DNA from: Heterodontus francisci
Taxonomy: Eukaryota
Direction: 5' to 3'
DNA length: 64,000 nucleotides
Assembly (NCBI RefSeq): GCF_036365525.1
Contig: NC_090379.1
Coordinates: 110,213,350-110,277,349 of the forward strand
In this document: piece by piece, positions 2,847-41,963 of the stretch
Layout: every line of letters starts with the position of its first letter
Position numbering within the stretch: position 1 is the first letter of the stretch
The notes under the pieces: generated by a model
The model's input: the letters and a program-made list of their open reading frames with translations, nothing else
Database searches by the model: none
Told to the model about the DNA's origin: nothing
Translations under genes and position numbers: made by a program

Positions 2847-3839
2847 TTATAAAATTATACAGATGATTTGGAGTTGGGGACCACGTGTAGGGTGTCAAAG
2901 TTTGCAGATGACACTAAGATGAGTGGCAGGGCAAAGTGTGCAGGTGACTGTGAAACTTTGCAGAGGAACATAGATACATTGAGTGAGTGGGCAAAGGTCT
3001 GGCAGATGGAATACAATGTTAATAAATGTGAAGTCATTCATTTTGGTAGGAATAACAGTAAAAAGGATTATTACTTGAATGGTAAAAAGTTGCAGCAAGC
3101 TGCTATGCAGAGGGACCTGGGTGTCCTTGTGCATGAATCGCAGAAGGTTGGTCTGCAGGTACAGCAAGTAATTAGGAAGGCAAATGGAATTTTGTCCTTC
3201 ATTGCTAAAGGGATTGAGTTTAAAAGCAGAGAGGTTATGTTGCAGCTGTATAAGGTACTGGTGAGGCCGCACCTGGAGTACTGTGTGCAGTTTTGGTCTC
3301 CTTACTTGAGAAAGGATGTACTGGCACTGGAGAGGGTGCAGAGGAGGTTCACTAGGTTGATTCCGGAGTTGAGGGGGTTGGCTTATGAGGAGATACTGAG
3401 TAGATTGGGATTATATTCATTGGAATTCAGAAGAATGAGGGGTGATCTTATAAAAACATATAAAATTATGAAGGGAATAGATAAGATACAAGTAGAGAGG
3501 CTGTTTCCACTGGCAGGTGAAGCTAGGACAAGAGGGCATAGCCTCAAGATTAGAGTGAGCAGATTTAGGACTGAATTAAGAAGGAACTTCTTCACCCAGA
3601 GGGTTGTTAATCTATGGAATTCCTTGCCCAGTGAAGTAGTTGACGCTTCTTCAGTAAACGTTTTTAAAGCTAAGGTAGATATCTTTTTGAACAATAAAGG
3701 AAATAAGGGATACGGTGAGAATGCGGGTAAGTGGATCTGAGTCCATGAAAAGATCAGCCATGATCTTATTGAATGGCGGAGCAGGCTCGAGGGGCCAGAC
3801 GGCCTACTCCTGCTCCTAGTTCTTATGATCTTATGATCT
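2847..3839 (+). mobile_element. 5'-truncated CR1/HER1-like LINE inserted in GPCR exon 2
   Basis: RT C-terminus (KFADDTK, LVRPHLEYCVQFWSP, RRMRGDLI, FTQRVVNLWNSLP), 3' UTR and terminal CTTATGAT repeats; absent from paralogs B and C. Confidence 0.95.
2868..3740 (+). CDS. Uninterrupted partial CR1 ORF2 reverse transcriptase (C-terminal 290 aa)
   Basis: ORF track; FADD catalytic motif; no stops. Confidence 0.75.
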   Translation: MELGTTCRVSKFADDTKMSGRAKCAGDCETLQRNIDTLSEWAKVWQMEYNVNKCEVIHFGRNNSKKDYYLNGKKLQQAAMQRDLGVLVHESQKVGLQVQQVIRKANGILSFIAKGIEFKSREVMLQLYKVLVRPHLEYCVQFWSPYLRKDVLALERVQRRFTRLIPELRGLAYEEILSRLGLYSLEFRRMRGDLIKTYKIMKGIDKIQVERLFPLAGEARTRGHSLKIRVSRFRTELRRNFFTQRVVNLWNSLPSEVVDASSVNVFKAKVDIFLNNKGNKGYGENAGKWI

Positions 3840-4519
3840 TCTCTGGGTCAGTGTGATTCTCACTCTTTCTGTGATCCAGTAGTTTCCTGCGGACTCTGTT
3901 GCCCACTAAAATGTGTCTGACAGTCAGTGCATTGAGCAGTAAAATCAGAAGGAATGGAAGGAAAGGGGTTAAAATCATACTGAGGCTTTGAAATGCTACC
4001 CAGGCAGCTTCGGTGTAAAAGCTCAGCGATTCAATTGCCCCCTAGGATACATTGTCAATTATATATTCAGGTTCATATATAAAGTACCAAGGAATATTTT
4101 TGAAGCAGAACAGCACACTCACTGTCGTTGCAATTACAGTCACAGTTTTCTCTGTGCAATATTTTGCTTTCATTTTCTGGCAACAAATTGCAACAAATCG
4201 ATCAAAGGTGAAAGCAACAGTGAACCAGACAGAAATATCTGTGGCTGCAGAAAGCAGGACATGTATGAGAGAACATGCAGGTGTGGTGTCCAGGTAAGTA
4301 CCTGGGAAATGAAAATGAATAAGTGTAAACAATATCACATCAGTGAAAACGACCAGTAGATCTGCCATTGCCATGGCCACCAGGTAGTGGGTGATACATT
4401 TGGAGAGTCCGCACTTTCCTGGTGACAGGATCAGAATGGCCACTGAGTTAACTGAAATAAATGGAACAAAACACAAGATAATTATAGTTGCCATCTCAGA
4501 AAGCATGAAAATTTCATAG

Positions 4520-5690
4520 GAACTGAAGGACTTTAGAAGAGGAGTTGGCCATTCAGCCCATCGAACTTGTTATACCATTCAATTGGATTATGGCTGATCC
4601 ATACCTTAACTTTATTTATCTGCCTCGGTTCCATAAACTTCAATACTCTTGCTATGCATATACTGCCTGCTATGTTTCCTGCATGACAGCAGTGACTATG
4701 CTTCAAAAATTCTCTATTGGCTGTGAAGCGCTTTGTGATATCTAGCTGTTGTGAAAGCTCATATATAAATGCAAGTCATTTACTTCCTTTTTCTTTCTAA
4801 CAACAATCTCATTTTTGAAATTTTGAATGGACCTAGCCATAACAGCTTTTTTGGGGAGAGAGTTCAAGATTTCCACTATTCTTTGTTTGAGATATTGCTT
4901 CCTGAAAGCCGAGCTCCAATTTTAAGGTTATGTCTCCTTCTTCTGGACTCCCCCAACAGAGGGAACGGTTTCTCTCCATCTACCTTATCAAATCCTTTAA
5001 TTATCAGAGGCAATTCAACTGTTGACACTTACTCTTCCATATTCAAGGGAATACAAGCTGGGTCGATGCAACCTGTGCTCATAATTTAATCCTTTCTGCA
5101 TCGATACCAGTATTGTGAAACTGCGCCTCACCTCCTCCAAGACGAATATATCCTTCCTGAGGTGAGGAGCCCAGAACAGAATGCAGTTACTTTAAATGGG
5201 GTCTAACCAGAGTCTCTACAGCTGTAGCCTAACTTCCACGCCTTTGTATTCCAGCCAACCTTGAAAAAAAGGATAACATTCCATTCGACACTTCAATGAT
5301 TTTTTTAAATATATGTATCAACGAGCTTTGAATGATTTCTGTATTTGAACGCAAAAGCTCTCATGTCTCATCCACAGTTCCTAACTTGTCCTGATTTAGA
5401 AAAACTTTGATCTATCCTTCTTCGGTCCAAATTAGATGACCTCACAATTTCCTGTGCTCATTTCCATCTGCCACAGTTTTGCTCACTCACTTAATTAACT
5501 GATGTCCCTTTGCAACTTTCAGCTCCCATCTAACTTTCTGTCATCAGCAACTTAGATACGTGACTCTCTGTTCCATCATCCAAGTTATTAATTGATACAT
5601 TGAAGAACTGAGACTCCCTTATGTATGACATTAGTTACTGTCTCAAAAAATTCAATGAGGTTAGACATGATTGTCCATTTACAAATCTAG
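4520..5690 (-). mobile_element. Old CR1 3' remnant in the GPCR intron, homologous in the introns of B and C
   Basis: Reverse complement of CR1 3' UTR and RT C-terminus; same position in all paralog introns. Confidence 0.7.
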
Positions 5691-6977
5691 TTACAGATAG
5701 GGATCCCAGTGAGCAAAGGAGTTACATATAATAATCTGAGAGGCAAAAAATTCCCGCTATTGATAACATGGAAAAGGCAAATATAGCTAGGGATTTAAGA
5801 GAGCATAGGACTTATGGACTTGGATCCCAAAAGCAATACATGTTTGTGAAAAATGTAATGGAATTGAAAAAAGAGACTTGCTTTTAGTAGCACCGTTCAT
5901 GGCCTCGCCCTTCCCCCACCATCTCCCGCGTCCCACCCCCCCGCCCCGCCCAAAGTGATTTACATCCAACGAAGTGCATTTTCCTTTGAAATGTAGTCAC
6001 TGTTATAATGTAGGAAATGCAGCAGCCAATTTGCACACAGCAAACCCCCATAAACATCAATGTGATAATAACAATGAATGCTTCACCATATAGATCATTT
6101 GTAAATTTTTCATTATTTTGTTCCGGAGATATTGTTTTGGAAATTGGTAAAGAAAGGATAGCATGAATCCGAGCAAGTAGCAGACAGGAAGAATCAGGGA
6201 AAGAGAAAACGAGGGCACAATGTTTAGTGAAGAAGATGAATTTCAGAATTAAATCAGATTTTGCTGTTGTAACAGAGTTGAAAGTGTGTGAGCAGAGCAG
6301 GAAGATGAGGAGATGGAAGAAAAGCTGATGGTTGATGAACTTGGGTTTCAAAATTGGACAGTTCCTGACAGTTGAAGAGACACAACCCTGGTGGTCCAGT
6401 TATTTATAGGATAGGGACAGTCTACCTGCTCAAAATATTTCTTCCATAGTATTGAGTGGAATATATCTGGTTAAAAGTCTTTGGTATGGTGTAATTTGCT
6501 GCACCAAGCCTATTTCCTCTTGTCACCATTTATGGTCACACTTTCACACCGACATTTAGTATTGGATCTTCTGATGTAAACATTCTGAATGACATTTCCC
6601 TATGTAATCAGTTACATTTTACGGTTTGTTGATGAAGCAATTGAATGACTCAAAATGGTTTTTGAACAATGTCTGGAATTTATTCTAATAACTGAAATTT
6701 GTAAACACTAAAATATGGTTTTGAACAGAATTTGAAAATTCAAAAAGGATACATTTCAAAATAATATAATTAAATTTACATTGCAAAAGGTATTTGTTTA
6801 CATTAAATTGTTAAGTAGCTTACCAAGAACTCCAACAACTGCAAGAAATGGATAGTAAATGTCTTCTATCTGGTGGAATATTGTTGGTTCACGCATTTTC
6901 TGTGAGATGTGATAGCTTTTGTCGATGCTGGAGGCAATAGCTCTGCCTAATTGCACAATGCATCCAGAGGAACCTTG

Positions 6978-7022
6978 TATTTATACAGAAGGGAAATCTC
7001 TAGTGACATGCCTGTTGCATCA
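6978..7022 (-). promoter_or_regulatory. Paralog A promoter: TATAAATA (6978-6985), kB-like GGGAAATCTC (6991-7000), C/EBP-ATF TGATGCAAC (7014-7022)
   Basis: Motifs ~80-125 nt upstream of the ATG; conserved with identical spacing in B and C. Confidence 0.65.
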
Positions 7023-7603
7023 TCATTACTATTAATTACAATTAATTGAACAAACAAGTAGAATCAATCATGTGAAAACTTATATACGCATCATGGAATA
7101 AAATGTATTTAACTAGAGCTTACACAGACTTACAGTAAGATATTCCATTGAAAATATAATTGCATGTGAGCCTCCCAGAGGAAAATTATTGATCTATTAA
7201 GCATAGGTAGTTTCATCGATGGTATTGAAATTTTCTGTGGACCGTACCCTCTCAAATCAATATAAAATGTCTGTAATATTTGGACAATTTGTAATGTATT
7301 TTCTTGTGTATTTGATACCAAAAGAGTTGAAAAAAATAATTTCTCTGCTTTGCAAATCAAGGAACTTCAGTATTAAAAAAATTAAACTTCTTGAAAACCA
7401 GATTTACTATTACAATAAGTAATCATAAAGGGCTTATAAATTATAGATGGTGCTACCTGTGAACACTTGTGTGTTGGAACAACAACCTGTATTTCTAAAC
7501 CACCTGTAACATAGAACAATGTCCCAACGTGCCTTACAGAGACATAATGAAGATGGCACTGAGCAAAAGAATGAGAGATGAGGAAGGATGACCAAAGCTT
7601 CAC

Positions 7604-7902
7604 CATTTCAAAAACAGGGGGCATAGATTTAAGGTAAGGGGCAGGAGATTTAGAGGGGATTTGAGGATTTTTTCTTTTCCCAGAGGGTGGTTGGAATCTG
7701 GAACACACTGCCTGAAGGGGTGGTAGAGGCAGGAACTCTCACAATATTTAAGAAGTATTTAGATGAGCACTTGAAACGCGATAACATACAAGGCTACGGG
7801 CCAAGTGTTGGAAAATGGGATTAGATTAGATAGGCGCTTGATGGCCATGACGGACATGATGGACAGAAGGGCCTGTTTCTGTGCTGTATAATATTGACTC
7901 GA
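7604..7902 (+). mobile_element. Short CR1/HER1 3' fragment
   Basis: GGCATAGATTTAAGGTAAGGGG...GGGCCTGTTTCTGTGCTGTA tail; empty site visible at the homologous position near 62120. Confidence 0.75.
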
Positions 7903-8489
7903 TGAAAGAGATGGGTTTTAAAGAGGGTCAATGCCTTTGTCACTTACAGATTCAGCCAGGTTACCATCATCCACATTCTACGAACTTCAGCTTATCTGAA
8001 AATCTACAGTCCAACTGTAAGCCCATACTAGTCCTTTGCACTAAATATCCCTGTCCCTGTTGACCCACATTGGTCTCTGTTCCTTCCAAGAATGAAATTT
8101 AAAATGATCACCCATGTTTAAATTCCTTTGCAGCATCACCTGTCCCTATTGCTGTAACTCCACACCTTCTACCCCAGCCCAGAATTGTGTTTTTCTCTGA
8201 CTCTGGTCTTTTGTGCACCTCTCCCTCCATCTGACCCACTTTCATGACCAAGCCTTCACACTCTGGAATTCCCTCCCTTATCCCCTCTGCCTCTTTATCT
8301 CCCTCTCCTTTTTCAGTCCCCCCATAAAACCCACCTCTTTGACCGAGTTTTTGGTCGCCCTTCTTAATATCTCTTTTAATCCAATGCCTTTGTTTGCATG
8401 ATTATTCCCCTGAAAAGCTATTTGTGATGTTTTTCTATGTTAAAGGTGCCATGTAAATGCAAGTTGCTGCAGTTGTTCTATTAGTGTCC

Positions 8490-8900
8490 GCCTTGTCTCA
8501 CTAGTGGCACTGATGTTTCTCAGTCTTCATGGTGTTAAGTTGAAGTCCCACTTCAGGACTGAAGTAAAAAACTCATTGATGATAATTCGGTGTAGTACTG
8601 AAGGAGTGCTGCATTGCCGGTGGTGCTGTCTTTCAGTTAAGACGAGAGACTGAGACCGAGTCAGTCTTCCCAGATATACATAGAAGAGACCAGGGCATTT
8701 TTTTCAAAAAGAACAGGGCCGGTAAAAGAAAGCACTTGCATTTATGCAATGGTTTTCACGACCTCAGGACATTCCAAAGTAATTTTCATTGAATTAGGTT
8801 ACTTTTCTCTAAGTTCTCCTGGTTTCCTGGACATTATTTATCACTCAACCAACAACATGGAAAACTGATTATCTGGCATCATTAATTTGATGGTGAGCTT
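8490..8900. mobile_element. Decayed DeuSINE-like SINE fragments
   Basis: GTGTAGTACTGAAGGAGTGCTGCATTG...GGTGCTGTCTTTCAG resembles the Deu core as recalled. Confidence 0.4.
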
Positions 8901-9916
8901 GTCTCTTGGCCAATTAAGGGGGCATCCCTGTGAAAATCATATTGACTGCCCTTCACTTCCATCTCCCCCCAACCCCGGGACTGGTTTGGCACCTGGAAAC
9001 ACTCCTGACATCGTCACGGCCACCCCGCCGCTCGGCAACAGGACCTCCACTTCAGTATGTAAACTATGTGGGAAATGCATGGAAAGGTAATGTAATTGAT
9101 TTTTGTGAAACGTTCACTTACCTTTCCAGGCAAAGAACAGCCCCAACTCAAACGTAAAATTCCTTTTTTACAGGAGAGACAAGCATTCCTTCCTGGGAGA
9201 GTTCATTTCCTTGTCTGCAAACCCAAATCTCCAACATCAACTGGCTTTTAGCTGCTCCTGTGGTCTTCTTCACTGCAAAATTGAAACTGACATCTTGTTA
9301 ACAGAAGTCATAAGACTGTCATAAATTCTTCCTGTTGCTTTGATACAAGTTTACAGCCTGCACCTCAAACACAAAATGTCAACATTCAAGGCTCACTATT
9401 GACAGAATGTCCTTTTTTTTCAGTTAGAGGCACACAGACCTCTTAGTGTAAAAAACAAAATTCTTAGGACAACGTCGATGCTGACCTTTTGAGAAAGGCA
9501 GCTGCCGATATATGAGAAGTGTTCAACCACTTCTAAAGTCTTCCCTTCAATATCAATAGCTGGAGCTTTAAATTCTTGTCTAGGGAAGGGCTGGTGTCTT
9601 GCTCATGTTTAGTTGAGAGATCAAACATTTGTATGCAGAGCTCGAGGTTGGCTTGAATGTCACTTGCAATGTGGGCCACAACTGTGCAGTCATCGACATA
9701 TTGTAAATAGTGGATATGCTGGAGGGTCAACTTAATCTTGGTTGTCAGTTGTTGAGCTTCTCATCAAGTCGAAACTGTGTCGTCACCCCTTGTGCAAGTT
9801 AGCCATAAATTAGTTCCATGAAGAGAGTAGGCACAATCGCACAACCTTGCTTGACGCCCGTCCAGGTACGAATGGGCTCAGCCTGCAAATCATTGCAAAG
9901 TTTGCTGTCATACCAT

Positions 9917-10268
9917 TGGCGCAGTGGTTAGCACCGCAGCCTCACAGCTCCAGGGACCCGGGTTCGATTCTGGGTACTGCCTGTGCGGAGTTTGCAAGTT
10001 CTCCCTGTGTCTGCGTGGGTTTCCTCCGGGTGCTCCGGTTTCCTCCCACATGCCAAAGACTTGCAGGTTGATAGGTTAATTGGCCATTATAAATTGCCCC
10101 TAGTATGGGTAGATGGTAGGGAAATATATAGGGACAGGTGGGATGTGATAGGAATATGGGATTAGTGTAGGATTAGTATAAATGGGTGGTTGATGGTCGG
10201 CACAGACTCGGTGGGCCGAAGGGCCTGTTTCAGTGCTGTATCTCTAAAACTAAAACTAAAAACTAAAC
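9917..10268 (+). mobile_element. tRNA-derived HE1-like V-SINE
   Basis: A box TGGCGCAGTGG, B box GGTTCGATTC, V-domain GGTTTCCTCCGGGTGCTCCGGTTTCCTCCCAC, LINE-like tail with (CTAAAA)n. Confidence 0.9.
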
Positions 10269-10321
10269 GATGATGCAGAAGTCATGCAAGTCTCTGGAAA
10301 ACTTTCCAAAGGGCTTTGCAA

Positions 10322-10633
10322 TTTTTTTTTATTTAGAGATACAGCACTGAAACAGGCCCTTCAGCCCACCGAGTCTGTGCCGCCCAACAACCACCCATTT
10401 ATACTAACCCTACAGTAATCCCATATTCCCTACCACCTACCTACACTAGGGGCAATTTACAATGACCAATTTACCTATCACCTGCAAGTCTTTGGCTGTG
10501 GGAGGAAACCGGAGCACCCGGCGAAAACCCACGTGGTCACAGGGAGAACTTGCAAACTCCGTACAGGCAGGATCCAAAATTGGATCCAGGTCGCTAGAGC
10601 TGTGAGGCTGTGGTGCTAACCACTGTGCCGCCC
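10322..10633 (-). mobile_element. HE1-like V-SINE, inverted relative to its neighbour
   Basis: Reverse complement of the same family. Confidence 0.9.
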
Positions 10634-13438
10634 CAGGGCTTTGAGATTGATAGAATCAAATGCACTGACAGATCAATAAAGGTCACGTAGAGCTCTTTGC
10701 AATGCTCCACACATTTTTCTTGAATTTGTTGAGCGACCCGGATAATGTCTGCGGTCCCCCTGGATGGTCAGAAATCACATTGGGTCTTTGTAAGGATGTC
10801 ATCGCAGACAGATAAGAGGCAGTTCAGGAGGATTCATGTGAGACATGCCTCTATAATGCCCACAAATCGATTTTTCACCCCTCTTAAAAAGTGACACAAT
10901 GATGGCACTATGAAAGTCGGAACGCAGTATCTCTTCTTCCCAGATTTTTGTCAAAAGGTCTGAGAGTTTGAGCAAGATTTCATGACCAACAGCTTTATAG
11001 ATCTCTGAAGGAATGTTGTCCTGACCACACACTTTGTTATTTTTCATCTGTTATATAGCCTTTAGTAACTCAGCAAATGTTGGCAGCATATATAAATTTG
11101 ATCCTCAAGCTGTTGAGGGATTATTTTAGTGGTTTGTCCAATTCTGTAGCCTTCCGATTGAGAAGGTTTGGGCAGTGCTCCTTCCAACGGTCTTGGATGG
11201 TTGCATCACCTTTGAGAAGAGTATTGCCATCTTCAGCTTGGATGGGGGGATGGACCATTTGTTTTTGGTCTGTAGATGGTCTTGGTGGCTGGAAGAAGCT
11301 GCACATTGTCGTATCTATCTGCGTAACACTGGATTTCATTGGCCTTCTCGACCCACCACTTATTCTTGATGTCATACGTCATTCTCTGAGCTTATGATTT
11401 GATTAGTAAATATTCTTCTCGTTTCTGTTGAGATCTAGGCTGATTTTGACATATAAAGAAGGCTTAGCATTTCTGATTGAGAAGTTTGTATATTTCTTTT
11501 TCTTCCTTGTAAGTCTGTGGTCTGTCCAGCAGTCATTTGCACCCCGCACGGCTCAGGTCAGAATGGTATCCTTCCTATCCTGGCTCAAATAATGACAGAG
11601 TCCAGGAGGTGCCAATGCTTGGATCAGCGATGTTGTCTTGCATTTATCTTTCTGCTGAAAGAGTGTGTTTGTGATGGTGAGCCCATGGTCAGTGCACTTG
11701 GCGAGGAGGAGGAGCCTTTTGATTTTCCCATTCCTACTTTCGCATTGGTGCCCTTCCAGATGGAGTAATTATGTCCAACTCTGGCACTAAAGTCTCCCCG
11801 TCTTGTTTTGAGACTGCTGCCAGAATAGAATCCAGATCTGCTTAAAAGAGCTCCTTGGTTTCGTCAGTAGAATCGAGAGTGGGAGCATAAACACTGATGA
11901 TTGTGGCTTACTGGTTGACACTAAGCTGAAGCCGTAGGCTCATGAGTGATTTATTAATGACAACTGGATGTTCCAAAAGTATATCTGTGATTCTATTTTT
12001 GATGTCAAACCTAACTCCCTGGATACGAATATCCTCCTCTGGTTTCCCTTTGCAGAAGAAAGTGTATCCTCCTCCTTCTTCTCTAAGCTGGCCTACTGCA
12101 GGGTTTCAATGACAACAGCAACATCGATGTTATATCTCATAAGCTCCCGAGAAATTATGGCAGTTCTCCTTTCAGGACATTAACTGTTTTGATTGTTAAT
12201 ACAGTCGTGCATGTTCCAGATACAGAAATACATGCGTTTTTTTGCTTGTGTGTCTTTTTGGCCACAAGGATCATGGTCCCACTGTGTGTGGTTCCCTGGT
12301 CAGGACAGTTTGGGACAGCCTATGTTTGTGGCATCTTTTCCAGCCCCTTTCTCAAGTGAGGTGAGCAGAGGGGATCCTCTGGATTGCTCAGTCATGGATC
12401 CTGCTGCTGAGGAGTTACTTCTATCCCAAATCCAAGAGCTCAGTGACCATCAGGCATCCACCACCTACTTGCAGATTTGTGACCAGAGACATCCAGGTTC
12501 ACAGCCCTGTGCCCGATGCCACTTGTCCATCGCCAGATGGCTTTTTGGTGTTCCTGGCAGAGGACTGTGTGTGTCATCTTTTAAAGTGAGGTACTCTGTG
12601 CACAGTTGACAATTGCGCAGTCTTGACGGGTTTACATTCTTTACCCAATGGCATGGCAAGCCATGATGACTGGAGAGTATCAGTCCCACTGCAGCCTTCA
12701 TCTGCCTCCACAGCCATTGATGTGAACACATGCCTCATTCATCTGCATGTTCCACCATTGAGGTCTTGAAACGCATGTTGTTATTGAGGTTCACAAATCT
12801 AGATACGCCCATATCAATGTAGCAGAGTCACCTCACTCAGGTTTTAGCTGGTACAGTCTTGGTGGAAAGACAATCAGTGAGCAGAGCCACTATCAATCCA
12901 CCTTCCTGGGAAGTGACAACCAATCCCAGTGGAAAGCCCAAGAAAAAGAAATATGGAATGCAGATACAGCAAGCAATTAGGAAATCAACTGGCATATTGG
13001 ATTTTATTTAAGGGGACTGGAGTATATGAATAAAGACTTCAAAAGGAAATTGGATGGCCATTTGAAGGAAATAGACTTGCAGGGCTATGGCAATTAAACG
13101 GGGGAGCGGGAATGAGTGACCTTCTCTGTCGTGAGCCAGCATGGACTCAATGGGCCAAATAGTCTCCTGCTGTGCTTTAAAAGACTCTATGACACTACGT
13201 CTTGTGACAATTGTACAAGGCTTTGGTGAGACCACACCTGGAATACTTAAGGAAGGATATACTTGCCTTGGAGGCAGTACAGCCAATGTCCACTGGATTG
13301 GTCCCTGGGATGAGAGGGTTATCCTGTAATGAGAGGCTGAGTAAATTGGGTCCATATTGCCTGGACTTTAGAAGAATGAGTGGTGATCTCATTGAAACAT
13401 ATATATTCTGAAGGGGCTTGGCAGGTAGTCAGAGAGGT

Positions 13439-16400
13439 CTCTTTTACCTTATTCACATTCATTGCTTTCTATTTCCCTCCTGGTGTTTGATAAAGTGTCT
13501 ACCAAAACTCGTTTTCACAGCCACATCTCCTTCCTCAGTGACTGTCTCTGGCTGCAACTTATTCCATGTGGATTCCAACTGAAGTTTCATCCTTCATGTT
13601 TTGAATCCACCCAGGATTACAGGTATCTCTGAGAAATACAATATTCCTCGGACTGCTGTTCTTGCTGCATCCTGAGATCCATACTCAGTGCCTTGCACCG
13701 CCACATGTACACATTGGACTTCTCTCTCCAGCAGCACCACCTCACCTTATCTCAAAGTTGTTCTGCTCCACAGTTTCTTTCCATCCTTCGACTTATCTGA
13801 CACATTCACAGAAAACTTTTTTCTTCCTTTCAGGTGTTAAGGAACACAAACTCCAGCAGCTGATGGGGACTAGTGCCCCTCCAGATCTTCCTTCCCCTTC
13901 ACTTCCCTCTGACCCCATCGCTTCTGATCTGACCCCTTGCCGTAAATTCAATATACCTTCTGACCTTCCCCTTGCTGATGCTGACCGTTCAGTACTCAGC
14001 AAAGGACTCAGTTTTATCCCCTGTCGCCCTCACCTCAATGAATTTCGCGCTCGGCATGACGTTGAGCTCTGCTTCCATCGCCTTCACCTCTGGGCTTACT
14101 TCTTTGACCAGGAGTCCTCCCCCCAACCAGCAGACCCATTCACTGGCCGCCAGCATTCTCCCTCCACCTGGACCCCTCCCTCTGGCCTCTTACCCACTCT
14201 TGATCTTTTCGCTGAAAACTGTTGGTGAGACATCGGCCATCTCAGTTTCTCTGCTCCCCTCACTCCCTCGAACCTGTCCCCCTCTGAACTTGCTGCACAC
14301 CGTTCTCTTAGGTCAAACCCCGAAATTGTGATCAAAACTGCAGACAAGGGTGGTTCTGTTGCTGTCTGGCGGACCGACTTCTACCTTGTGGAGGCTGAGC
14401 GTCAACTCTTAGACACTTCTTCCTACCTCCCCCTGGATCAAGACCCTACCACCGAACATCAAGCTACTATCCACAGGAATTCCACAGACATCATCTCCTC
14501 TAGAGATCTTCCCTGTACAGCTTCCAACCTCATAGTCCCACAAACCCGGACAGCCCACTTCTATCTCCTTCCTAAAATCCACAAACCGGACTGTCCTGGC
14601 AGACCCATCGTTTCAGCCTGTTCCTGCCCCACTGAACTTATTTCTTTCTATCTTGACTCTATCTTTTCTCCCCTGGTCCAGTCTCTTCCCACCTACATCC
14701 ATGACTATTCTGACGCCCTACGTCATTTTGACAATTTCCAGTTTCCTGGCCCCAACCGCCTCCTCTTCACTATGGTCTCAGGGCTCTCCACTTCTTCCTT
14801 GAACAGAGGCCCAACCAGTCCCCATCCACCACCACCCTCCTCCGCCTGGTTGAACTTGTTCTCACATTGAATAACTTCTTCTTTAACTCCACTCACTTCA
14901 TTCAAGTAAAAGGATTTGCTTTGGGTACCCGCATGGGTCCTATTAATGCCTGTCTTTTTTTGGGATATGTTGAACATTCCTTGTTCAGTCCTACTCAGGG
15001 CCCCTCCGCCAACTCTTTTTCCGGTACATTGATGATTGCATTGGTCCTGTTGCCTGCTCCTGCCACGAACTGGAAAACTTTATCAACTTTGATTCCAATT
15101 TCCACCCTTCTCTCACCTTTACATGGTCAATCTCCGACACTTCCCTTCCCTCATCGACTTCTCTGTCTCCATCTCCGGGGATAGGCTCTCTATTAATATT
15201 CATTATAAGCCCACCGACTCCCACAGCTACCTAGACTACACTCTTCACACCCTGCCTCCTGTAAGGACTTCATTCCTTTCTCCCAGTTTCTCCATCTCCG
15301 ACGCATCTGCTCTGGTGATGCAACTTTCCACAACAGCGTTTCTGATATGTCCTCCTTTTACCTCAGCCGAGGATTCCACCCCACTATGGCTGACAGGGCC
15401 CTCAACTGTGACCTGCCCATTTCCTACACTTCTGCCCTCACCCCTTCCCCTCCCTCCCAGAACCATGACAGGGTTCCCCTTGTCCTCACTTTCCACCCCA
15501 CCAGCCTCCATATCCATATCATCCTCTGCCATTTCCGCCATGTCCAGTGTGATGTCACTACTAAGCGCAACTTCCCCTTCCCTGTCAGCATTCCGAAGGG
15601 ATTGTTCCCTCTGTGACATCCTGGTCCACTCCTCCATTACCCCCAACACCTTGTCTCCTTCCCATGGCACCTTCCCATGCAATCGCAGGAGGTGTAATAC
15701 CTGCCCTTTTGCCCCCTGTCTTCTCACTATCCAAGGCCCCAAACACTTCTTTCAGTTGAAGCAGCGATTTACTTGTACTTCTTTCAAATTAGTATACTGT
15801 ATTCGCTGCTCACAATGCGGTCTCCTCTACATTGGGGACACCAATTGCTGATTGGGTGACTGCTTTGTGGAACACCTTCGCTCAGTCCAAAAACATGACC
15901 CCGAGCTTCCTGCCGCTTGCCATTTCAACACACTCCCCTGCTCTCATGCCCACATCTCTGTCCTGGACTTGCGGCAGTGTTCCAGTGAACATCAACGCAA
16001 GCTCGAGGAACAGCATCGCATTTACCGATTAGGTGCGCTACAGCCTGCCGGACTGAACATTGAGTTCAATAATTTCAGAGCATGACTGGCCCCTTTTTTT
16101 TTTAGTTTTCTCTTTTCTTCTTTATTATTTTGATTTTATTTTAGTTTGTTCAATCATTCACTTTTTACCATGTGCCTGACCACTGTTTGTTTTCATGTTT
16201 GTGCTTTTGCCAGGGCTGTTCATTATTCTGTCTTTTAACACCCTCTCTGCACTAACACATTCTCTTTCACGACACAATTAACACACCCTTTGCCTTTGCT
16301 CCATGACCTTCTGGTCAGTTATTCACTGTGACCATCTGTCATATCAACAACTTCCCTTTTGTTATATTTTGCCACACCCCCACTTTATTTGCTTAAACCC

Positions 16401-16550
16401 TATTACATTTCTAACCTTTGGCAGTTCTGATGAAAGATCACTGACCTGAAATGTTAACATTCTCCACAGATGCTGCCAGACCTGCTGAGTATTTCCAGCA
16501 ATTTTTGTTTTTATTTCAGATTTCCAGCATCTGCAGTATTTTGTTTTTAT
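13439..16550 (+). mobile_element. Penelope-like retroelement (RT + GIY-YIG), frameshifted, nested in a CR1 fragment
   Basis: IKTADKGG, FYLLPKIHKP, GTRMGP, RYIDDC, HYKPTDSH, VYCIRCSQCGLLYIGDT; 15-bp flanking repeat GGTAG(T/A)CAGAGAGGT at 13424-13438 and 16551-16565. Confidence 0.92.
16423..16458 (+). ncRNA. Degenerate minimal type I hammerhead ribozyme motif in the PLE 3' region
   Basis: AGTT-CTGATGA-A-AGATCA-C-TGACCT-GAAA-TGTT-AAC: both core boxes, helix II with one mismatch, short helix I. Confidence 0.55.
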
Positions 16551-16825
16551 GGTAGACAGAGAGGTTGTTTCCCTTGGCTGGGGAATCTAGAACATGGGAG
16601 AACAGTCTCAGGATAAGGATCATTTAGGATTGAGATAAGAAGAAATTGCCTCAATCAACGGATTGTGAATCTTTGGAATTCTCCTCCCTTGAGGGTTGTG
16701 GATGCTCCAACATTGAGTATATTTAAGACTGAGATAGACAGATGTTTGTTCTCCCAGGTATTCAAGGGATATGAGGAGCTGAGAGGGGGTGGGGGTGGGG
16801 GGGTAAGTAGAGTTGAAGCCAAAGC

Positions 16826-17750
16826 TGTTACTGACAGGTGATAAGAGGTGTGGGTAGTTCTGACGGTTCATCTTCCAACTGACCACAGCAAGTGCTTGTG
16901 TTACTAGGGTTTTAACGCCTTTGTGTTTTATTTGTCAAATAATCAGACAGAAACAGGTTTTCCTGTGGGTTCAAAACAAAAAAGTAACTATTTATTGAAC
17001 AATATTCATTCGCCAAATTGTTGCTAGCGCCCCCACCGATGCATTCTCTCTCTCTCTCACACACCCATACACAAACACAAAAAAGATAGGAAAAGGGGTA
17101 AGTGGTTTGAAGTGAGGGAAGTGTTCAGGGTTCATGGTAAAATTGTTGAATTTTCTTGGAGGTCAATTTCTCTTTTAAAGTTGTGGGCCTGGGTTGTTTC
17201 TAGATTTTTCTGATGGTTGAGATTTCAGTCTGGAGATGGTGGTCACTCGCAGTTCCCTACTGCAGCAAGTTGAAGGATAGAATTCATAGCAGGGCTCCTT
17301 CTTTGGCTTTTGATGGGTGTCACAGCTCCTGGCTGGACAAGCTTTTATGATGTTCTTCTGATTATCTTCTTCTCTCTCCAGAGAGCTACTTTTTAAGATA
17401 AAAGTCTCTCACATGTTGCCTCTGTTGGGAGTCACAGATCCCCCTCCCTATGTTGAATAACAATGGCCAGGATGTGATGACTTCACACATTCCTTGTTTC
17501 AGAAGAATATATTCAATTCAAAAATGTCTCTTGGTGGCTTTACGATGGGTGTAATTGACACCTCTTAGCTTGGAATGTATCCTTTTGCCCTTAACAGACA
17601 ATAAGACAGTTTGAAAATACAGGCAGGTTGTTTGATCTTCAGTGGCCATTTTGCAGGACATTGACAACTTTTTAAATGAAAAAGTAAATGTTTCGAACTC
17701 TTCAGTTTGGGTTCTGTATTTTCATCATTGCACTTCTTGTGACCGTGACA
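16826..17750 (-). mobile_element. Solo LTR (~925 bp) in a CR1 3' UTR
   Basis: TGT...ACA termini; related to the LTR-like sequences at 52980-54004 and 63084-63270; CR1 tail resumes after it. Confidence 0.65.
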
Positions 17751-17854
17751 AAACTGAACCATGATCATATTAAAAAGTGGAGCATTCGATGGGCAATATT
17801 GCCTACCCCTACTCCTATTTCTTTTGTCCTTCTGTTCTTGTGAAAGGTCGACAC

Positions 17855-18202
17855 AAAGAACAAAGAACAGTACAGCACAGGAACAGGCCATTCGGCCCTC
17901 CAAGCCTGCGCCGATCTTGATGCCTGCCGAAACTAACACCTTCTGTACTTCCGGGGCCCATATCCCTCTATTCCCTTCCTATTCATATGTTTGTCAAGAT
18001 GTCTCTTAAACGCCGCTATCGTATCTGCTTCCACCACCTCCCCTGGCAGCAACTTCCAGGCACTCACCACCCTCTGTGTAAAAAGCTTGCCTCGCACATC
18101 CCCTCTAAACTTTGCCCCTCGCACCTTAAACCTATGTCCCCTAGTAACTGACTCTTCCACCCTGGGAAAAAGCTTCTGTCCATGTCGCTCATAACTTTGT
18201 AA
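17855..18202 (-). mobile_element. CR1/HER1 3' fragment
   Basis: TRGHRFKVRGAKFRGDVRGKLFTQRVVSAW plus 3' tail. Confidence 0.85.
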
Positions 18203-18719
18203 ACCCTGAAACCCTGAAACGTTAAGTCTGTTTCTCTTTCCACAAATGCTGCCTGATCTGTTGCCAAGATTTTCTGATTTTATTATGGAAGATTATACTT
18301 CAGGCATCAGCAGTGTTTTCATCTACTTCCTTTAAATCCTGGGATGAAAACTGCCTAGTCCTAAGGATTTGTCAGTCTTTAGTGCCATTATTTTCTTCAT
18401 GACTGTTAATTTGCTTGCATTAATTTTGGTGAATCCCCATCCTTGATTCAATATTAGTTTCCTTCAGATGTCCTGCACGCTAACCTCTTCCTCTGTTGTA
18501 AATACTGATGCAAAGAAATTATTTAACCTATCTGTCATTTCTATATTTTCATTTATAATTTCATCATCATCAATTTTAAGATAAGGAGTCCACATTTCTC
18601 TTAACCACTCTCTTTTTCCAAATATAAATTTAAAACATTTTTGTGTTGATTTTGATATTCTTTGCAAGTTTCTTTTCCTACTCCCTTTTTGTAACTCTTA
18701 CTGATTGTTGTGTCCCTTC

Positions 18720-19930
18720 CAAATACTGAATGGGGATAGGAGGGGGCAGATGTATTTGGTGGTGGCAGCAAGCGTGTGCTGGCAGAAATTGCAGAGAATG
18801 ATCTGTTCAACGTGGAGGCTGGTGGGGAAACCTATCATGGTTCTGGAGGATTGAGGACAGAAGTGTGTGAAATGGGATGAAAATTGTAAAGGGCCTTAAT
18901 ATCCTTGGTGAATACAAATCCTCGGTGGAAGAAATCGAAAGGCTTAAGGTGTGGAAGTGGTATCATCAGAACTGAGGTGATGGACACAGAGGAACTGCTA
19001 GCATAGTTAAGGAAGTGGATTGGGAGCATGGAAATCAAGGTAGCTGTGGGAGTCAGTGATTTTGTTTCAATCTTGCATGGGATCTAGGCATCACTGGCAA
19101 GGCCAGCATTTGTTGCCCATCCCGAATTGTTCTTAACAACTGGGTGACTTGCCGAGCCATTTCAGAGGACTGTAAAAAGTCAACCACATTGCTGTGGGTC
19201 TGGAATCACATGTAGGCCAGATCAGGTAAGGACAGCAGATGTCCTTCACTACAGGACATTTGTGAACCAGATGTGGATTTACAACATTCGATGATAGTTT
19301 CATGGCATCATTAATGATACTAGTTTTCAATTCTATTAGTTAATCGAATTCCATGAATTAATCGAATTTAAATTCCACCAGTTGCCATGGTGGAATTTGA
19401 ATCTATGTCACCGGGGAATTATCCTGGGCCTCTGGATTCCTCATCCAGTGACATTACCACTATGCCACTGTCTCCCCGCATAGATATTGTCTGACGGCCT
19501 ATTACCTGAAATGAAGATAGAGAAGTTGCGGAAGGGAAGAGAAGAGTTGGTGATGGAGCTGGTTAAAGTGAGGCGTGGGTTCAAATTTTAATGCAAAGCT
19601 AATGAAACTGAAAAGTGTTAAATTGATGGAGAGATTCTGGTGAGACACAGATATAGGTTGGATGAGATTGGGCAGGGAGTGATAAACTATTCTCAAGATA
19701 GGAAGAAATAAGTTCGAGGTGACAAGAACAGGCTCATCCGATAGGTCTACCAGAGCAGCCCTGTTTGTGAACCTTGGAAAGGAAGGCAGGATGAGCAGAG
19801 TTGGGAGCTTTGAGCCCAGAGGCCAAAGTTGGAAAATCTCCAGAACAGATGAGGTCACTGATCGTCTGAGAATCAAAGTAGTTGCTGTGATCTGTTGCAG
19901 ACTTGTGTGGAGTGTAAACATGTGAAGAAG
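18720..19930 (-). mobile_element. Old Penelope-like remnant 3' of GPCR B, interrupted by another repeat at ~19070-19480
   Basis: Minus strand KVHKQGCSGRPIG*ACSCHLELISSYLE, matching the PLE RT at 14570-14660. Confidence 0.7.
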
Positions 19931-19970
19931 CCCTGTAACCAGAATCAGTGATAGAAAGGTAGCTCTGATT

Positions 19971-20890
19971 TTAGGTGATCTGCTTTAATTGTTTAACCAA
20001 TTTAACAATTGCAGTGAATGGATATTTGACTGCATTCTTCAGCTGCTCTCTGAATTTAGTCTGAGTCACTGCATAAATACAGGTGTTGGTGCAGGTGCTC
20101 AAAAGCTGCAGCATGTAGCCAGATTGTTCAGTGATGTATGCAGGATCATGGGGACCTGTGTAATAAGAAATGTCAGCAATTCGCCAATAAAGGAAATATA
20201 GAACAGTTGTCATCCATAACAGTATAAAACTGCTAGATATAGTGAAGAGTAAAATGATGGATTTCCTTCGGTTCTCCATCTCTGGGTCAGTGTGACTCTC
20301 ACTCTTGCTGTGATCCAGTAGTTTCCTGCGGACTCTGCTGGCCACTAAAATGTGTCTGACAGTCAGAGCATTGAGCAGTAAAATCAGAACGAATGGAAGG
20401 AAAGGGGTTAAAATAGTACTGAGGATTTGAAATGTTACCCAGGCAGCTTCGGTGTAAAAGCTCAGTGATTCAATTGTCCCCCAGGGTACATTGTCAATTA
20501 TATATTTAGGTTCATATATAAAGTACCAAGGAATATTTTTCAAACAGAACAACACACTCATTGTCATTACAATCGCAGCCACAGTTTCCTCTGTACAATA
20601 TCTATTTTTCAGATTCTGGCAACAAATAGCAACAAATCGATCAAAGGTGAAAGCAACGGTAAACCAGACAGAAATGTCTGTGGCTGCAGAAAGCAGGACA
20701 AGTACGAGAGAACGTCCAGGAGTGGTGTCCAGGTAAGTACCTGGGAAATGAAAATGAACAAATCCAAACAGTATCACATCAGTGAAGATGACCAGTAGAT
20801 CTGCCACTGCCATGGCCACCAGGTAGTGAGTGATACATTTGGAGAGTCCGCACTTTCCTCGTGACAGGATCAGAATGGCCACTGAGTTAA
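19971..20890 (-). CDS. GPR139-like: GPR139-like GPCR paralog B exon 2, duplicated copy lacking its native exon 1
   Basis: Open frame TM1(part)-TM7, DRF, NTCIY; TTCCAG acceptor at 20891; intron cut by the duplication junction at 22715. Confidence 0.8.
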
Positions 20891-22718
20891 CTGGAATAAG
20901 TGGAACAAAAAACAAGAGAATTTCATATAACCATCTCAGAGAACATGGGAATGTCATAGGAACATTAGACTTGGCCATTCAGCCCATCAAACTTGTTCTG
21001 CCATTCAATTAGATCATGACTGATCTGTACCTTAACGTCAATTAACTGCCTCGGTTCTGTAACCTGCAATACCCTCGTCTAACAAGAGTCTATCAGTCTC
21101 ATTTTTGAAAATTGGAATTGTCCAAGCTTTAACAGCATTTTGGGGGGCGAGTTCCTGATTTCCACGACCCCGTTTGTTGGAAAGTCCTTCCTGATATCAC
21201 CCCTGAATAGCCTCGCACTAATTTCAAGGTTACGTCCCCTTCTTCTGGACTCCCCCACGAGAAGAATTAGCTTCCATTTACCCAATCGAATCCTTTACAA
21301 AATTAAACATTTCACTTAGTTGACTCCTTAATCTTTGATATTCAAGGGAATACAAGCCTAGTCTTTGCAACCTGTGCTTATAATTTAAACCTTTCAGCAC
21401 AGCTATCAGTCTTATGATTCTGCGTTTCACCACATCCAATGCCAATATATCCTTCCTGAGGTGAGGAACCCAGAACTGAATACAGTTACTCCAAATGGGG
21501 TCTATCCAGAGCTCTGTACAGCTGTAATTTAACTTCTATCCCTTTGTATTCCAGCCAACCTAGAAATAAAGGATAGCATTCCATTAGGCATTTTATTTTG
21601 TTTTTCTATGTGTCCCCAAGCTTTTATTGATTGCTATGTTTGGACACCAAGTTTCTCTTCTGATCCACAGTTCTGAACTTGTCCCCATTTGAAACACTTT
21701 CAGCTATCTTTCTGAGGTTTGAGTTGAATGACCTCACACGTTGTCATGCTAAACTCCATCTGCCATAGTTTTGCTCTCTCACTCAAGCAATTAATCTCGT
21801 TTTAAAACATTCTGCTCCCATCTAACTTTGTATTGTCAGCAAACTTGCATATGCAATTCTCTATTCCATCATCAAACTTATTAATCGATGCAGTGAAAAT
21901 CTGAGACTCCCTAATGCACCATGTTAGTTACCTCCGCAAAAAGCTCAACCAGGTTAGATATGACTTTCCATTTACAAATCTAGTTCCAGAAAGGGATCCC
22001 AGAGAGCAAGGGAGTTACACATAGTGATCTGAGAGGCAGGAAATTACAGCTCGTGATACCGGAGAGCAAGGCAATTACTGCTAGGGATTGAAGAGAGCAT
22101 GGGATTTATGTATCACGATTCCAAAGACAGCGGTACACTCAGAAGAATTGTGTGGTTATTAAAAAAAGGACACTTGCATTTCTATAGCTCCATTCACAAC
22201 CTCAGGGCATCACAAAGTGCTTTAAAGCCAATGAAGTACTTTTTCTTTGAGGTGTAGTCGCTGTTATAATGTAGGAAACGCAACAGCCATTTTTCACACA
22301 GCAAGCGCCCATCATCAGCAATGTGATAATGACCAGGAATGCTTCGCAATATCAAGGCAATTGAAGCATTTATAGCTTGGTCAGCATCTTGTTCTGGAGA
22401 TGCATTTCAAAAATCAATAATTATTTTGGAACATAGTAAAGAAATGGTGGTGTGAATCTTAACAAATATCATAGTGCAAGGATCAGGGAAAGAACAGACT
22501 TGGATAACTGAAGAAGGTGAACTTCAGAATTAATTCAGATTTGCTGTTGTCACAGAGTTGAAAATGTGTGAGGGGAGCCAGAAGATGAGACGATGGAACA
22601 AGGGATGATGGTTGATAAACACTGGTTTTAAAATTAGACAAGTCCTGACAGCAGAAGAGGCACCACCCTGGTTGTTCAGTTATTTATAGGATAGGGCCAT
22701 TCCACCTGCTCAAAAGCC

Positions 22719-25617
22719 ACCCAGGCAGCTTCGGTGTAAAAGCTCAGCGATTCAATTGCCCCCTAGGATACATTGTCAATTATATATTCAGGTTCATATA
22801 TAAAGTACCAAGGAATATTTTTGAAGCAGAACAGCACACTCACTGTCGTTGCAATTACAGTCACAGTTTTCTCTGTGCAATATTTTGCTTTCATTTTCTG
22901 GCAACAAATTGCAACAAATCGATCAAAGGTGAAAGCAACAGTGAACCAGACAGAAATATCTGTGGCTGCAGAAAGCAGGACATGTATGAGAGAACATGCA
23001 GGTGTGGTGTCCAGGTAAGTACCTGGGAAATGAAAATGAATAAGTGTAAACAATATCACATCAGTGAAAACGACCAGTAGATCTGCCATTGCCATGGCCA
23101 CCAGGTAGTGGGTGATACATTTGGAGAGTCCGCACTTTCCTGGTGACAGGATCAGAATGGCCACTGAGTTAACTGAAATAAATGGAACAAAACACAAGAT
23201 AATTATAGTTGCCATCTCAGAAAGCATGAAAATTTCATAGGAACTGAAGGACTTTAGAAGAGGAGTTGGCCATTCAGCCCATCGAACTTGTTATACCATT
23301 CAATTGGATTATGGCTGATCCATACCTTAACTTTATTTATCTGCCTCGGTTCCATAAACTTCAATACTCTTGCTATGCATATACTGCCTGCTATGTTTCC
23401 TGCATGACAGCAGTGACTATGCTTCAAAAATTCTCTATTGGCTGTGAAGCGCTTTGTGATATCTAGCTGTTGTGAAAGCTCATATATAAATGCAAGTCAT
23501 TTACTTCCTTTTTCTTTCTAACAACAATCTCATTTTTGAAATTTTGAATGGACCTAGCCATAACAGCTTTTTTGGGGAGAGAGTTCAAGATTTCCACTAT
23601 TCTTTGTTTGAGATATTGCTTCCTGAAAGCCGAGCTCCAATTTTAAGGTTATGTCTCCTTCTTCTGGACTCCCCCAACAGAGGGAACGGTTTCTCTCCAT
23701 CTACCTTATCAAATCCTTTAATTATCAGAGGCAATTCAACTGTTGACACTTACTCTTCCATATTCAAGGGAATACAAGCTGGGTCGATGCAACCTGTGCT
23801 CATAATTTAATCCTTTCTGCATCGATACCAGTATTGTGAAACTGCGCCTCACCTCCTCCAAGACGAATATATCCTTCCTGAGGTGAGGAGCCCAGAACAG
23901 AATGCAGTTACTTTAAATGGGGTCTAACCAGAGTCTCTACAGCTGTAGCCTAACTTCCACGCCTTTGTATTCCAGCCAACCTTGAAAAAAAGGATAACAT
24001 TCCATTCGACACTTCAATGATTTTTTTAAATATATGTATCAACGAGCTTTGAATGATTTCTGTATTTGAACGCAAAAGCTCTCATGTCTCATCCACAGTT
24101 CCTAACTTGTCCTGATTTAGAAAAACTTTGATCTATCCTTCTTCGGTCCAAATTAGATGACCTCACAATTTCCTGTGCTCATTTCCATCTGCCACAGTTT
24201 TGCTCACTCACTTAATTAACTGATGTCCCTTTGCAACTTTCAGCTCCCATCTAACTTTCTGTCATCAGCAACTTAGATACGTGACTCTCTGTTCCATCAT
24301 CCAAGTTATTAATTGATACATTGAAGAACTGAGACTCCCTTATGTATGACATTAGTTACTGTCTCAAAAAATTCAATGAGGTTAGACATGATTGTCCATT
24401 TACAAATCTAGTTACAGATAGGGATCCCAGTGAGCAAAGGAGTTACATATAATAATCTGAGAGGCAAAAAATTCCCGCTATTGATAACATGGAAAAGGCA
24501 AATATAGCTAGGGATTTAAGAGAGCATAGGACTTATGGACTTGGATCCCAAAAGCAATACATGTTTGTGAAAAATGTAATGGAATTGAAAAAAGAGACTT
24601 GCTTTTAGTAGCACCGTTCATGGCCTCGCCCTTCCCCCACCATCTCCCGCGTCCCACCCCCCCGCCCCGCCCAAAGTGATTTACATCCAACGAAGTGCAT
24701 TTTCCTTTGAAATGTAGTCACTGTTATAATGTAGGAAATGCAGCAGCCAATTTGCACACAGCAAACCCCCATAAACATCAATGTGATAATAACAATGAAT
24801 GCTTCACCATATAGATCATTTGTAAATTTTTCATTATTTTGTTCCGGAGATATTGTTTTGGAAATTGGTAAAGAAAGGATAGCATGAATCCGAGCAAGTA
24901 GCAGACAGGAAGAATCAGGGAAAGAGAAAACGAGGGCACAATGTTTAGTGAAGAAGATGAATTTCAGAATTAAATCAGATTTTGCTGTTGTAACAGAGTT
25001 GAAAGTGTGTGAGCAGAGCAGGAAGATGAGGAGATGGAAGAAAAGCTGATGGTTGATGAACTTGGGTTTCAAAATTGGACAGTTCCTGACAGTTGAAGAG
25101 ACACAACCCTGGTGGTCCAGTTATTTATAGGATAGGGACAGTCTACCTGCTCAAAATATTTCTTCCATAGTATTGAGTGGAATATATCTGGTTAAAAGTC
25201 TTTGGTATGCTGTAATTTGCTGCACCAAGCCTATTTCCTCTTGTCACCATTTATGGTCACACTTTCACACCGACATTTAGTATTGGATCTTCTGATGTAA
25301 ACATTCTGAATGACATTTCCCTATGTAATCAGTTACATTTTACGGTTTGTTGATGAAGCAATTGAATGACTCAAAATGGTTTTTGAACAATGTCTGGAAT
25401 TTATTCTAATAACTGAAATTTGTAAACACTAAAATATGGTTTTGAACAGAATTTGAAAATTCAAAAAGGATACATTTCAAAATAATATAATTAAATTTAC
25501 ATTGCAAAAGGTATTTGTTTACATTAAATTGTTAAGTAGCTTACCAAGAACTCCAACAACTGCAAGAAATGGATAGTAAATGTCTTCTATCTGGTGGAAT
25601 ATTGTTGGTTCACGCAT
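22719..25617 (-). pseudogene. GPR139-like: Truncated duplicate of paralog A (exon 1 25545-25617 intact; exon 2 22719-23172 cut, TAG at 22763-22765)
   Basis: Same 154-aa ORF as 4042-4506; ends at the junction. Confidence 0.88.
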
Positions 25618-25698
25618 TTTCTGTGAGATGTGATAGCTTTTGTCGATGCTGGAGGCAATAGCTCTGCCTAATTGCACAATGCATCCAGAGGAACCTTG

Positions 25699-25743
25699 TA
25701 TTTATACAGAAGGGAAATCTCTAGTGACATGCCTGTTGCATCA
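25699..25743 (-). promoter_or_regulatory. Duplicate of the paralog A promoter module
   Basis: Same sequence as 6978-7022. Confidence 0.65.
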
Positions 25744-28989: not shown

Positions 28990-29042
28990 GATGATGCAGA
29001 AGTCATGCAAGTCTCTGGAAAACTTTCCAAAGGGCTTTGCAA

Positions 29043-36472: not shown

Positions 36473-36576
36473 AAACTGAACCATGATCATATTAAAAAGT
36501 GGAGCATTCGATGGGCAATATTGCCTACCCCTACTCCTATTTCTTTTGTCCTTCTGTTCTTGTGAAAGGTCGACAC

Positions 36577-41882: not shown

Positions 41883-41963
41883 TTTCTGTGCGATGTGATA
41901 GTTTCTGTTGGTGCCAGAGATAATAACTCTGTCTGATTACATGAAACATTCAGAGGAGCCATG

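Follow-up and report, generated by a model that had tools for sequence, protein, structure and literature searches.

Introduction

The mammalian olfactory receptor, V1R and TAAR families have promoters with O/E and homeodomain motifs. Another type of promoter, carrying the C/EBP-ATF response element (CARE or AARE), is exemplified by ASNS, CHOP and TRIB3. CARE/AARE promoters are bound by ATF4-C/EBP heterodimers, and TGATGCAA is a documented ATF4-C/EBPbeta site (PMC7049960). The orphan class A GPCRs GPR139 and GPR142 are activated by L-Trp and L-Phe (PMC5430874, PMC12208981), and F3x33, H5x43, W6x48 and N7x38 are the residues needed for activation of GPR139 (PMC5430874). A set of 1,948 olfactory receptors is quoted for the elephant in PMC11979771, and PMC8455134 describes cartilaginous fishes as relatively poor in GPCRs.

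The present analysis concerns a 64,000-nucleotide stretch of the Heterodontus francisci genome, hereafter the window (G000:C9:110213350-110277349 of the 6.0-Gb genome), and the receptor family to which its genes belong. This family is not mentioned in the accessible sections of PMC11979771, nor in those of PMC12208981, and a literature search, with most subscription papers outside its reach, found no description of the receptors or of their promoter. In NCBI annotation the genes bear the name of GPR139, and specialists may know them.

Results and Discussion

The first-pass annotation had described a C/EBP-ATF-type site, a kB-like word and a TATA box at four stretches of the window, and the motifs, their order and their spacing are indeed present there: the minus strand at 6978-7022, 25699-25743, 41964-42008 and 60765-60809 reads TGATG(C/T)AAC, 13 nt, GA(G/A)ATTTCCC, 5 nt and TATAAA. 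The kB-like word GGGAAAT(C/T)TC occurs in the window at these four places only (6991, 25712, 41977, 60778). At all four promoters the distance from the TATA box to the ATG is 89 nt, and the ATG belongs to a coding exon of 73 nt whose 3' boundary reads G|GTAAGC. Since the TATA box is positioned 89 nt before the ATG of an exon of this length with a GT donor, the motif stretches are predicted to be the correctly oriented proximal promoter of two-exon, minus-strand rhodopsin-class GPCR genes. The 7tm_1 domain was detected in genes B2 (53.9 bits) and C (48.3 bits; cut-off 30.5), and by their sequence the window genes are class A (rhodopsin) GPCRs. Coordinates are collected in Table 1.

Table 1. Features of the window (strand as in the reference; a full stop marks a feature without strand)
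Feature	Position	Strand	Comment
LINE-like retroelement fragment inside exon 2 of A	2847..3839	+	no Pfam match
Exon 2 of gene A, 5' part	3840..4451	-	in-frame stop after 135 codons: pseudogene
Tandem duplication, 18.7 kb	3991..41435	.	3991-22715 = 22712-41435; 99.8%, 35 mismatches, 2 gaps
Coding exon 1, gene A	6824..6896	-	24 codons + 1 nt, GT donor
TATA box, promoter A	6980..6985	-	predicted TSS ~30 nt downstream
kB-like GGGAAATCTC, promoter A	6991..7000	+	conservation no higher than own spacers
C/EBP-ATF-type site TGATGCAAC, promoter A	7014..7022	-	constrained within cluster
Forkhead-type site TGTTTGTTCA, promoter A	7047..7056	-	1.0 changes/column; 0/432 background windows as low
Exon 2 of B1	19971..20890	-	frame intact; without own promoter or exon 1
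Truncated exon 2 of A2	22712..23172	-	stop shared with A
Coding exon 1 of A2	25545..25617	-	sequence
Promoter A2, duplicate of A	25701..25777	-	TATA 25701-25706, kB-like 25712-25721, bZIP site 25735-25743, forkhead 25768-25777
Exon 2 of intact gene B2	38693..39612	-	305 codons, 7tm_1; 100% identical to P0001
Coding exon 1 of B2	41810..41882	-	sequence
Promoter B2	41966..42042	-	TATA 41966-41971, kB-like 41977-41986, TGATGTAAC 42000-42008, forkhead 42033-42042
Exon 2 of intact gene C	56462..57399	-	311 codons, 7tm_1
Coding exon 1 of C	60611..60683	-	sequence
Promoter C	60767..60843	-	TATA 60767-60772, kB-like 60778-60787, TGATGTAAC 60801-60809, forkhead 60834-60843

The module had been placed, with fixed spacing, in front of every receptor paralog. 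This holds for the four window promoters; it does not extend to B1, which has no promoter, the window having five exon-2 copies and four promoters, or to most of the surrounding cluster, where the full module is present in 9 of 41 promoters. Only B2 and C are whole genes, A being a pseudogene and A2 a truncated copy. Genome-wide, the exact module gave 8 matches in 6.0 Gb (control, 0), all of them within the window's cluster. The four copies are not independent either, as A and A2 belong to one duplication; the two units being 99.8% identical, there are three independent promoters and not four. The flanks of these three are 73–79% identical over kilobases, and a fixed spacing is what descent would predict for them. 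At the junction of the duplication (22712-22715) the intron of B is joined to the middle of exon 2 of A, and this non-homologous junction favours a real and recent duplication event, while the 0.2% divergence of the units could also reflect two haplotypes joined in the assembly.

The same duplication places the intact promoter and exon 1 of A2 upstream of the promoterless but intact exon 2 of B1 (19971-25777), with only the broken exon-2 fragment of A2 between them. Skipping of that fragment would yield a chimeric intact receptor composed of A2 exon 1 and B1 exon 2.

The promoters of the cluster, a tandem array of ~40 genes at G000:C9:109.1-110.4 Mb, were aligned (n = 41; 40 scored matches from 829 first-look candidates, and L043) and parsimony changes per column were determined. 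The values were 0.33 for the TATA box, 1.0 for a forkhead-type word located at -71 from TATA, 1.56 for the bZIP site and 2.5 for the kB-like word, compared with 2.0–2.5 for the spacers, 3.5 for the background and 1.56 for exon 1. Background windows equally conserved numbered 0/452 for TATA, 0/432 for the forkhead word, 2/437 for the bZIP site and 77/432 for the kB-like word. Among the 14 changes in the bZIP site, 5 fall on its degenerate C/T position. Exact forms were retained in 36/41 promoters for TATAAA, 27/41 for TGATG(C/T)AAC and 13/41 for the original kB form; the looser consensus TGATGnAA is found in 4/4 window promoters and 31/41 cluster promoters, the site being missing from 10/41. 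After removal of near-duplicates (28 promoters left), column identity was 0.97 for TATA, 0.92 for forkhead, 0.87 for bZIP, 0.81 for kB and 0.80–0.88 for the spacers. Comparison of the motifs with their neighbouring bases thus separates the claimed trio: the TATA box and the bZIP site stand above their flanks and the kB word changes at the spacer rate. The claimed TATA box belongs to a real TATA promoter. Selection appears to act on the TATA box, on a bZIP site of C/EBP type that begins 37 nt upstream of it and, at 71 nt upstream, on a forkhead-type site.

The forkhead-type word, TGTTTGTTCA, is the most conserved upstream element and had been overlooked in the first-pass annotation. The forkhead and C/EBP classes of factor are putative and named after their consensus motifs. 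A myeloid Myb-C/EBP reading of the sequence TAACTG was dropped, its G being among the most variable columns. A promoter was looked for and not found in L041, L042, L044 and L045; L060 and L064 gave no exon 1, and at E<0.01 none was obtained for 13/20 of the loci L096–L115.

The kB-like word had been read as an NF-kB site of inflammation-inducible promoters. The likeness to the IL-8 and SAA promoters lies in a C/EBP-type site, a kB-like word and a TATA box within 45 nt; the difference is that the kB-like word here is unconstrained and mostly fails the strict consensus. With GGGRNWYYCC as that consensus, matches were obtained in 0/41 cluster promoters, 0/20 promoters of the largest subfamily and 1/40 divergent promoters (both sets are described below), and the original kB form was absent from all 40 divergent and all 20 largest-subfamily promoters. 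An array of amino-acid-sensing GPCRs inducible through NF-kB together with ATF4 or C/EBP, in the manner of IL-8 and SAA, would draw on GGGAAATTTCC in promoter B2, on the cluster promoters that keep the kB form, on some C5-cluster promoters reading GGGAGATTCC, which fits the consensus with its TTCC imposed by the search pattern, and on a weak similarity of the receptors to GPR139. We regard such an array as improbable, since the kB position evolves at the spacer rate in both test sets and amino-acid sensing is not supported, on the grounds given below. The kB-like word appears to be a form taken by chance in a spacer of moderate conservation, and the trio as first described is mostly paralog inheritance with this word as its one non-conserved member.

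The analysis was extended to divergent promoters, collected with a pattern of TATAAATTAAA and the exon-1 donor only (170 matches; control, 0), from which 40 were hand-picked out of the first 100 listed, near-duplicates being left out. The exon-1 peptide of the family is encoded in 40/40 of these loci, one of them having a stop in frame behind the ATG, and exon 2 lies inside the fetched 6 kb in 7/40. TG[CT]AA[CT] is present in 35/40, and 31 of these sites start exactly 35 nt before TATA. The rate for TTGCAAC was 2.29 changes per column, compared with 5.2–5.8 for the spacers and 5.56 for the kB position. As the commonest forms of the proximal bZIP site are ATGTTGCAAC (12/40) and AAGTTGCAAC (9/40), the divergent promoters hold the C/EBP half, TTGCAAC at a fixed distance from TATA, and hold neither the ATF half nor the kB word. 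A distal word, TGTC(G/A)TAAT, precedes the forkhead site in 22/40.

In the largest subfamily (n = 20; 18 from 20 distant protein matches and 2 chosen with the forkhead pattern), no promoter retains the proximal bZIP site (0/20). The distal site reads TGATGnAA in 15/20, and TGATG(T/C)AAT there changes at a flank-like rate (0.89, against 0.88–1.23) with no excess constraint; the forkhead word is nearly invariant (0.20). The window's clade is the reverse, with the proximal site kept and the distal site lost (0/41). The forkhead core was present in 35/41, 19/20 and 22/40 promoters of the cluster, largest-subfamily and divergent samples. Since the subfamilies sampled differ at 35–45% of fourfold sites and the window's clade contains skate and ray proteins (tree support 100/99), the promoter layout appears to predate the shark-ray split.

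Genome-wide searches gave 2,337 matches for forkhead-N60-63-TATA (control, 27), 2,048 for distal TGATG(C/T)AAT-forkhead (control, 0) and 183 for TTGCAAC-N28-30-TATAAATTAAA (control, 1). A pattern with the letters TGWTGYAAC and TTCC imposed (87 matches; control, 6) was not used for judging conservation, the set anchored on TATA and exon 1 being used instead. Upstream-window controls in the divergent and three-subfamily comparisons ignore shared descent, and the rate tests carry the argument: shark DNA evolves slowly and the whole core promoter is alignable, therefore presence counts alone are weak and relative rates are what is compared.

With DNA that evolves so slowly, it may also be that only the TATA box matters, the other words persisting by inheritance. 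The likeness of the flanks of the three window promoters, a fourfold-site divergence of 8% within the cluster and the fairly conserved spacers near TATA, noted above, are what pure inheritance would produce. However, in two independent sets the adjacent spacers are outpaced by none of these words: forkhead and C/EBP evolve 1.3 to 2.5 times more slowly than they do, and TTGCAAC keeps its distance to TATA; pure inheritance has accordingly only a slight chance of being the whole explanation. At the level of sequence there is a real forkhead, C/EBP and TATA code, common to thousands of genes for orphan receptors.

The bZIP-type site fits the CARE and C/EBP consensus and is a candidate element of this kind. 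Promoters A and A2 contain an exact copy of TGATGCAA, and B2 and C carry TGATGTAA. The site differs from CARE/AARE in that conservation in the divergent sample is limited to the C/EBP half and in that a forkhead word accompanies it at a fixed distance. The assignment to C/EBP-ATF stands in part: within the cluster the whole site, including the ATF half, is constrained above its flanks and one of its forms is documented, whereas the divergent set holds TGCAA only, and TGATGnAA, the ATF-type form, is found near -45 in 7/40 divergent promoters. The conserved GCAAC could belong to a factor class other than C/EBP; an RFX half-site would be one such candidate, the preceding T fitting it poorly.

A stress-inducible repertoire, with the bZIP site acting as a true ATF4-C/EBP (CARE) element in amino-acid starvation or the integrated stress response and without NF-kB, would agree with the occurrence of TGATGnAA at three registers in three lineages (proximal, distal and near -45, with the counts above). 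Both lineages left with one bZIP site read TGATG(C/T)AA there, and TGATGCAA is an ATF4-C/EBPbeta site (PMC7049960). Set against this, the 5' half is variable in the divergent promoters, as its two commonest forms show, one or two changes suffice to turn a neighbouring word of ancestral type into each TGATG form, and the distal site is free of excess constraint. ATF4-type inducibility of the receptor promoters is possible, and as the main explanation we consider it unlikely, if less so than the two readings weighed before it. In a subgroup of loci (L116, L137, L141, L144, L149 and L153; G000:C21, C22, C24 and C26), TGATG(C/A/G)AA overlaps directly with a following GTTGCAAC, so that ATF4-type and C/EBP-type sites are fused.

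The protein 100% identical to B2 is labelled 'probable G-protein coupled receptor 139 [Heterodontus francisci]', and of 2,782 matches the 120 listed all have shark, skate or ray names. Orthologues of the window's clade exist in whale shark, zebra shark, catshark, sawshark, skates and stingray. Further points of likeness to GPR139 are that it is the best solved-structure match of the receptors (E 5e-10) and that W6.48 is kept in 67/67 members. In contrast, the family is only 25% identical to the genome's own GPR139, with thousands of loci against one match: the true GPR139 is a single pattern match, on G000:C24 (L156), and is 25% identical to B. In trees the family lies on a long branch separate from GPR139. 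F3x33, H5x43, W6x48 and N7x38 are kept in 0, 0, 22 and 0 of the 22 members of the window's clade and in 6, 26, 45 and 0 of the 45 other members; F3x33, H5x43 and N7x38 occur together in 0/67. Identity as GPR139 orthologues was rejected on the separate gene, the low identity and the loss of ligand residues. The amino-acid sensing proposed earlier rests on the 'GPR139' label and is not supported by this evidence. The name 'probable GPR139', assigned automatically to thousands of shark proteins, is misleading.

Bony-vertebrate relatives were compared using ten distant representatives out of 150 listed. Among these ten, salamander, coelacanth and two teleost proteins lie nearer to the family than to the shark's GPR139, and a quick tree with long branches places the two salamander proteins as the sister group of the cartilaginous-fish clade (SH-aLRT 96), followed by the coelacanth and teleosts, all apart from GPR139. 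Because these relatives are nearer to the family than to GPR139, the receptor lineage appears to be gnathostome-wide, with a huge expansion in elasmobranchs. The cluster would be one old clade within a family that numbers thousands of orphan class A GPCRs with two exons, a family related to GPR139 and distinct from it.

Several of these relatives, P0230, P0272 and P0275 from salamanders, P0235 from the coelacanth and P0241 and P0253 from teleosts, carry a GPR139 label, are not GPR139 and are related to the shark family. A salamander protein keeps F3.33, W6.48 and N7.39, residues that offer a handle on the ancestral ligand. The stingray family member P0175 is labelled 'vasopressin V2 receptor-like' and other members 'GPR15-like' or 'GPR39-like', the family being scattered over several automatic names.

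One 26-nt exon-2 word gave 3,519 exact matches in the genome (control, 0); since this word misses the window's own cluster, 3,519 is a lower bound on loci, which uncollapsed haplotypes could inflate. Exon 2 was intact in 27/37 loci hand-sampled from the first 100 listed matches and nearby clusters, and in 20/20 cluster genes picked from the top matches. For 67 sequences, with one ratio fitted to each site class in place of a site model, dN/dS was 0.60 overall, 0.40 for intracellular positions, 0.53 for non-pocket TM positions and 0.78 for the pocket, as defined by a general list of positions; within the window's own clade it was 0.53. A ratio above 1 was not shown in any class, the highest being 1.25 for the largest-subfamily pocket (p 0.27), with all others <1. 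Family-wide, pocket entropy was 1.60 compared with 0.82 at other TM positions, and 0/10,000 permutations were as high; inside the window's clade pocket variability was not significantly raised (p 0.11). The size of the family, with at least 3,519 loci, a mostly intact sample and a variable pocket, matters more than the original motif trio.

Family clusters many megabases long are found on G000:C21, C40, C28 and C39 and at C5:200-206 Mb and C17:90-92 Mb; the first 7.4 Mb of C21 contain ~50 matches of forkhead-TATA.

Tandem clusters, birth and death, compact genes and a variable pocket are shared with olfactory receptors, V1R and TAAR, as is one short promoter grammar common to thousands of genes. 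Unlike those families, the present one derives from another receptor lineage and uses forkhead, C/EBP and TATA in place of O/E and homeodomain motifs. On balance we think it probable that the window's motifs are part of a forkhead, C/EBP and TATA proximal promoter, inherited by duplication in the cluster and cell-type-specific, which serves a giant repertoire of orphan receptors with diversified ligands. From the sequence and its observed conservation we infer a forkhead factor, named by its consensus, that would open the promoter in one cell type, and a C/EBP-containing dimer that, bound beside TBP, would drive transcription. Given the observed family size and pocket variability, many paralogs with diversified pockets, expressed together in that presumed cell type, would constitute a ligand-detecting repertoire for putative ligands of many kinds. 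The common promoter words are a direct handle on the site of expression, a cell type with forkhead and C/EBP, and also offer a ready reporter test.

A broader picture is put forward tentatively, and we would sooner expect parts of it to fall than the whole to stand. Cartilaginous fishes may carry an unrecognised repertoire of class A GPCRs, up to ~2,500 of them intact in this genome by the rough product of 27/37 and at least 3,519 loci, descended from a GPR139-related gnathostome gene that survives in salamanders, the coelacanth and teleosts. It would be governed by one forkhead, C/EBP(-ATF4) and TATA code in which the ATF4-type site arose three times, and could act as a stress-tunable chemical surveillance of a sensory, gut or immune kind. 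If true, the receptor repertoire would be larger than the elephant's olfactory receptor set.

Assembled contigs from three runs of one sample, taken by guess to be RNA, were compared with 38400-42600 at 82% likeness. Paralog-like contigs cover exon 2, the exon-1 bin is covered in 2/3 runs and the promoter bins are without cover; such contigs, available in assembled form only, cannot map TSS, strand, tissue or level, and were given no weight in the argument.

Mobile elements are also present in the window. The LINE-like fragment inside exon 2 of A is presumably of CR1 type, judged by its motif. A 712-nt self-inverted MITE-like element is found at 9918-10629 and 28639-29350, with related pieces at 47064-47364, 60175-60531 and 62409-62750; one related copy sits ~80 nt past exon 1 of gene C, within its intron. 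At 13605-15851 and 32326-34572 lie broken frames of retroelements in which a LYIG-type motif is found at the C-terminus; the piece tested gave no Pfam match, and these frames are putatively Penelope/GIY-YIG-like. A frame at 44613-44975 carries a putative Harbinger-transposase-like motif.
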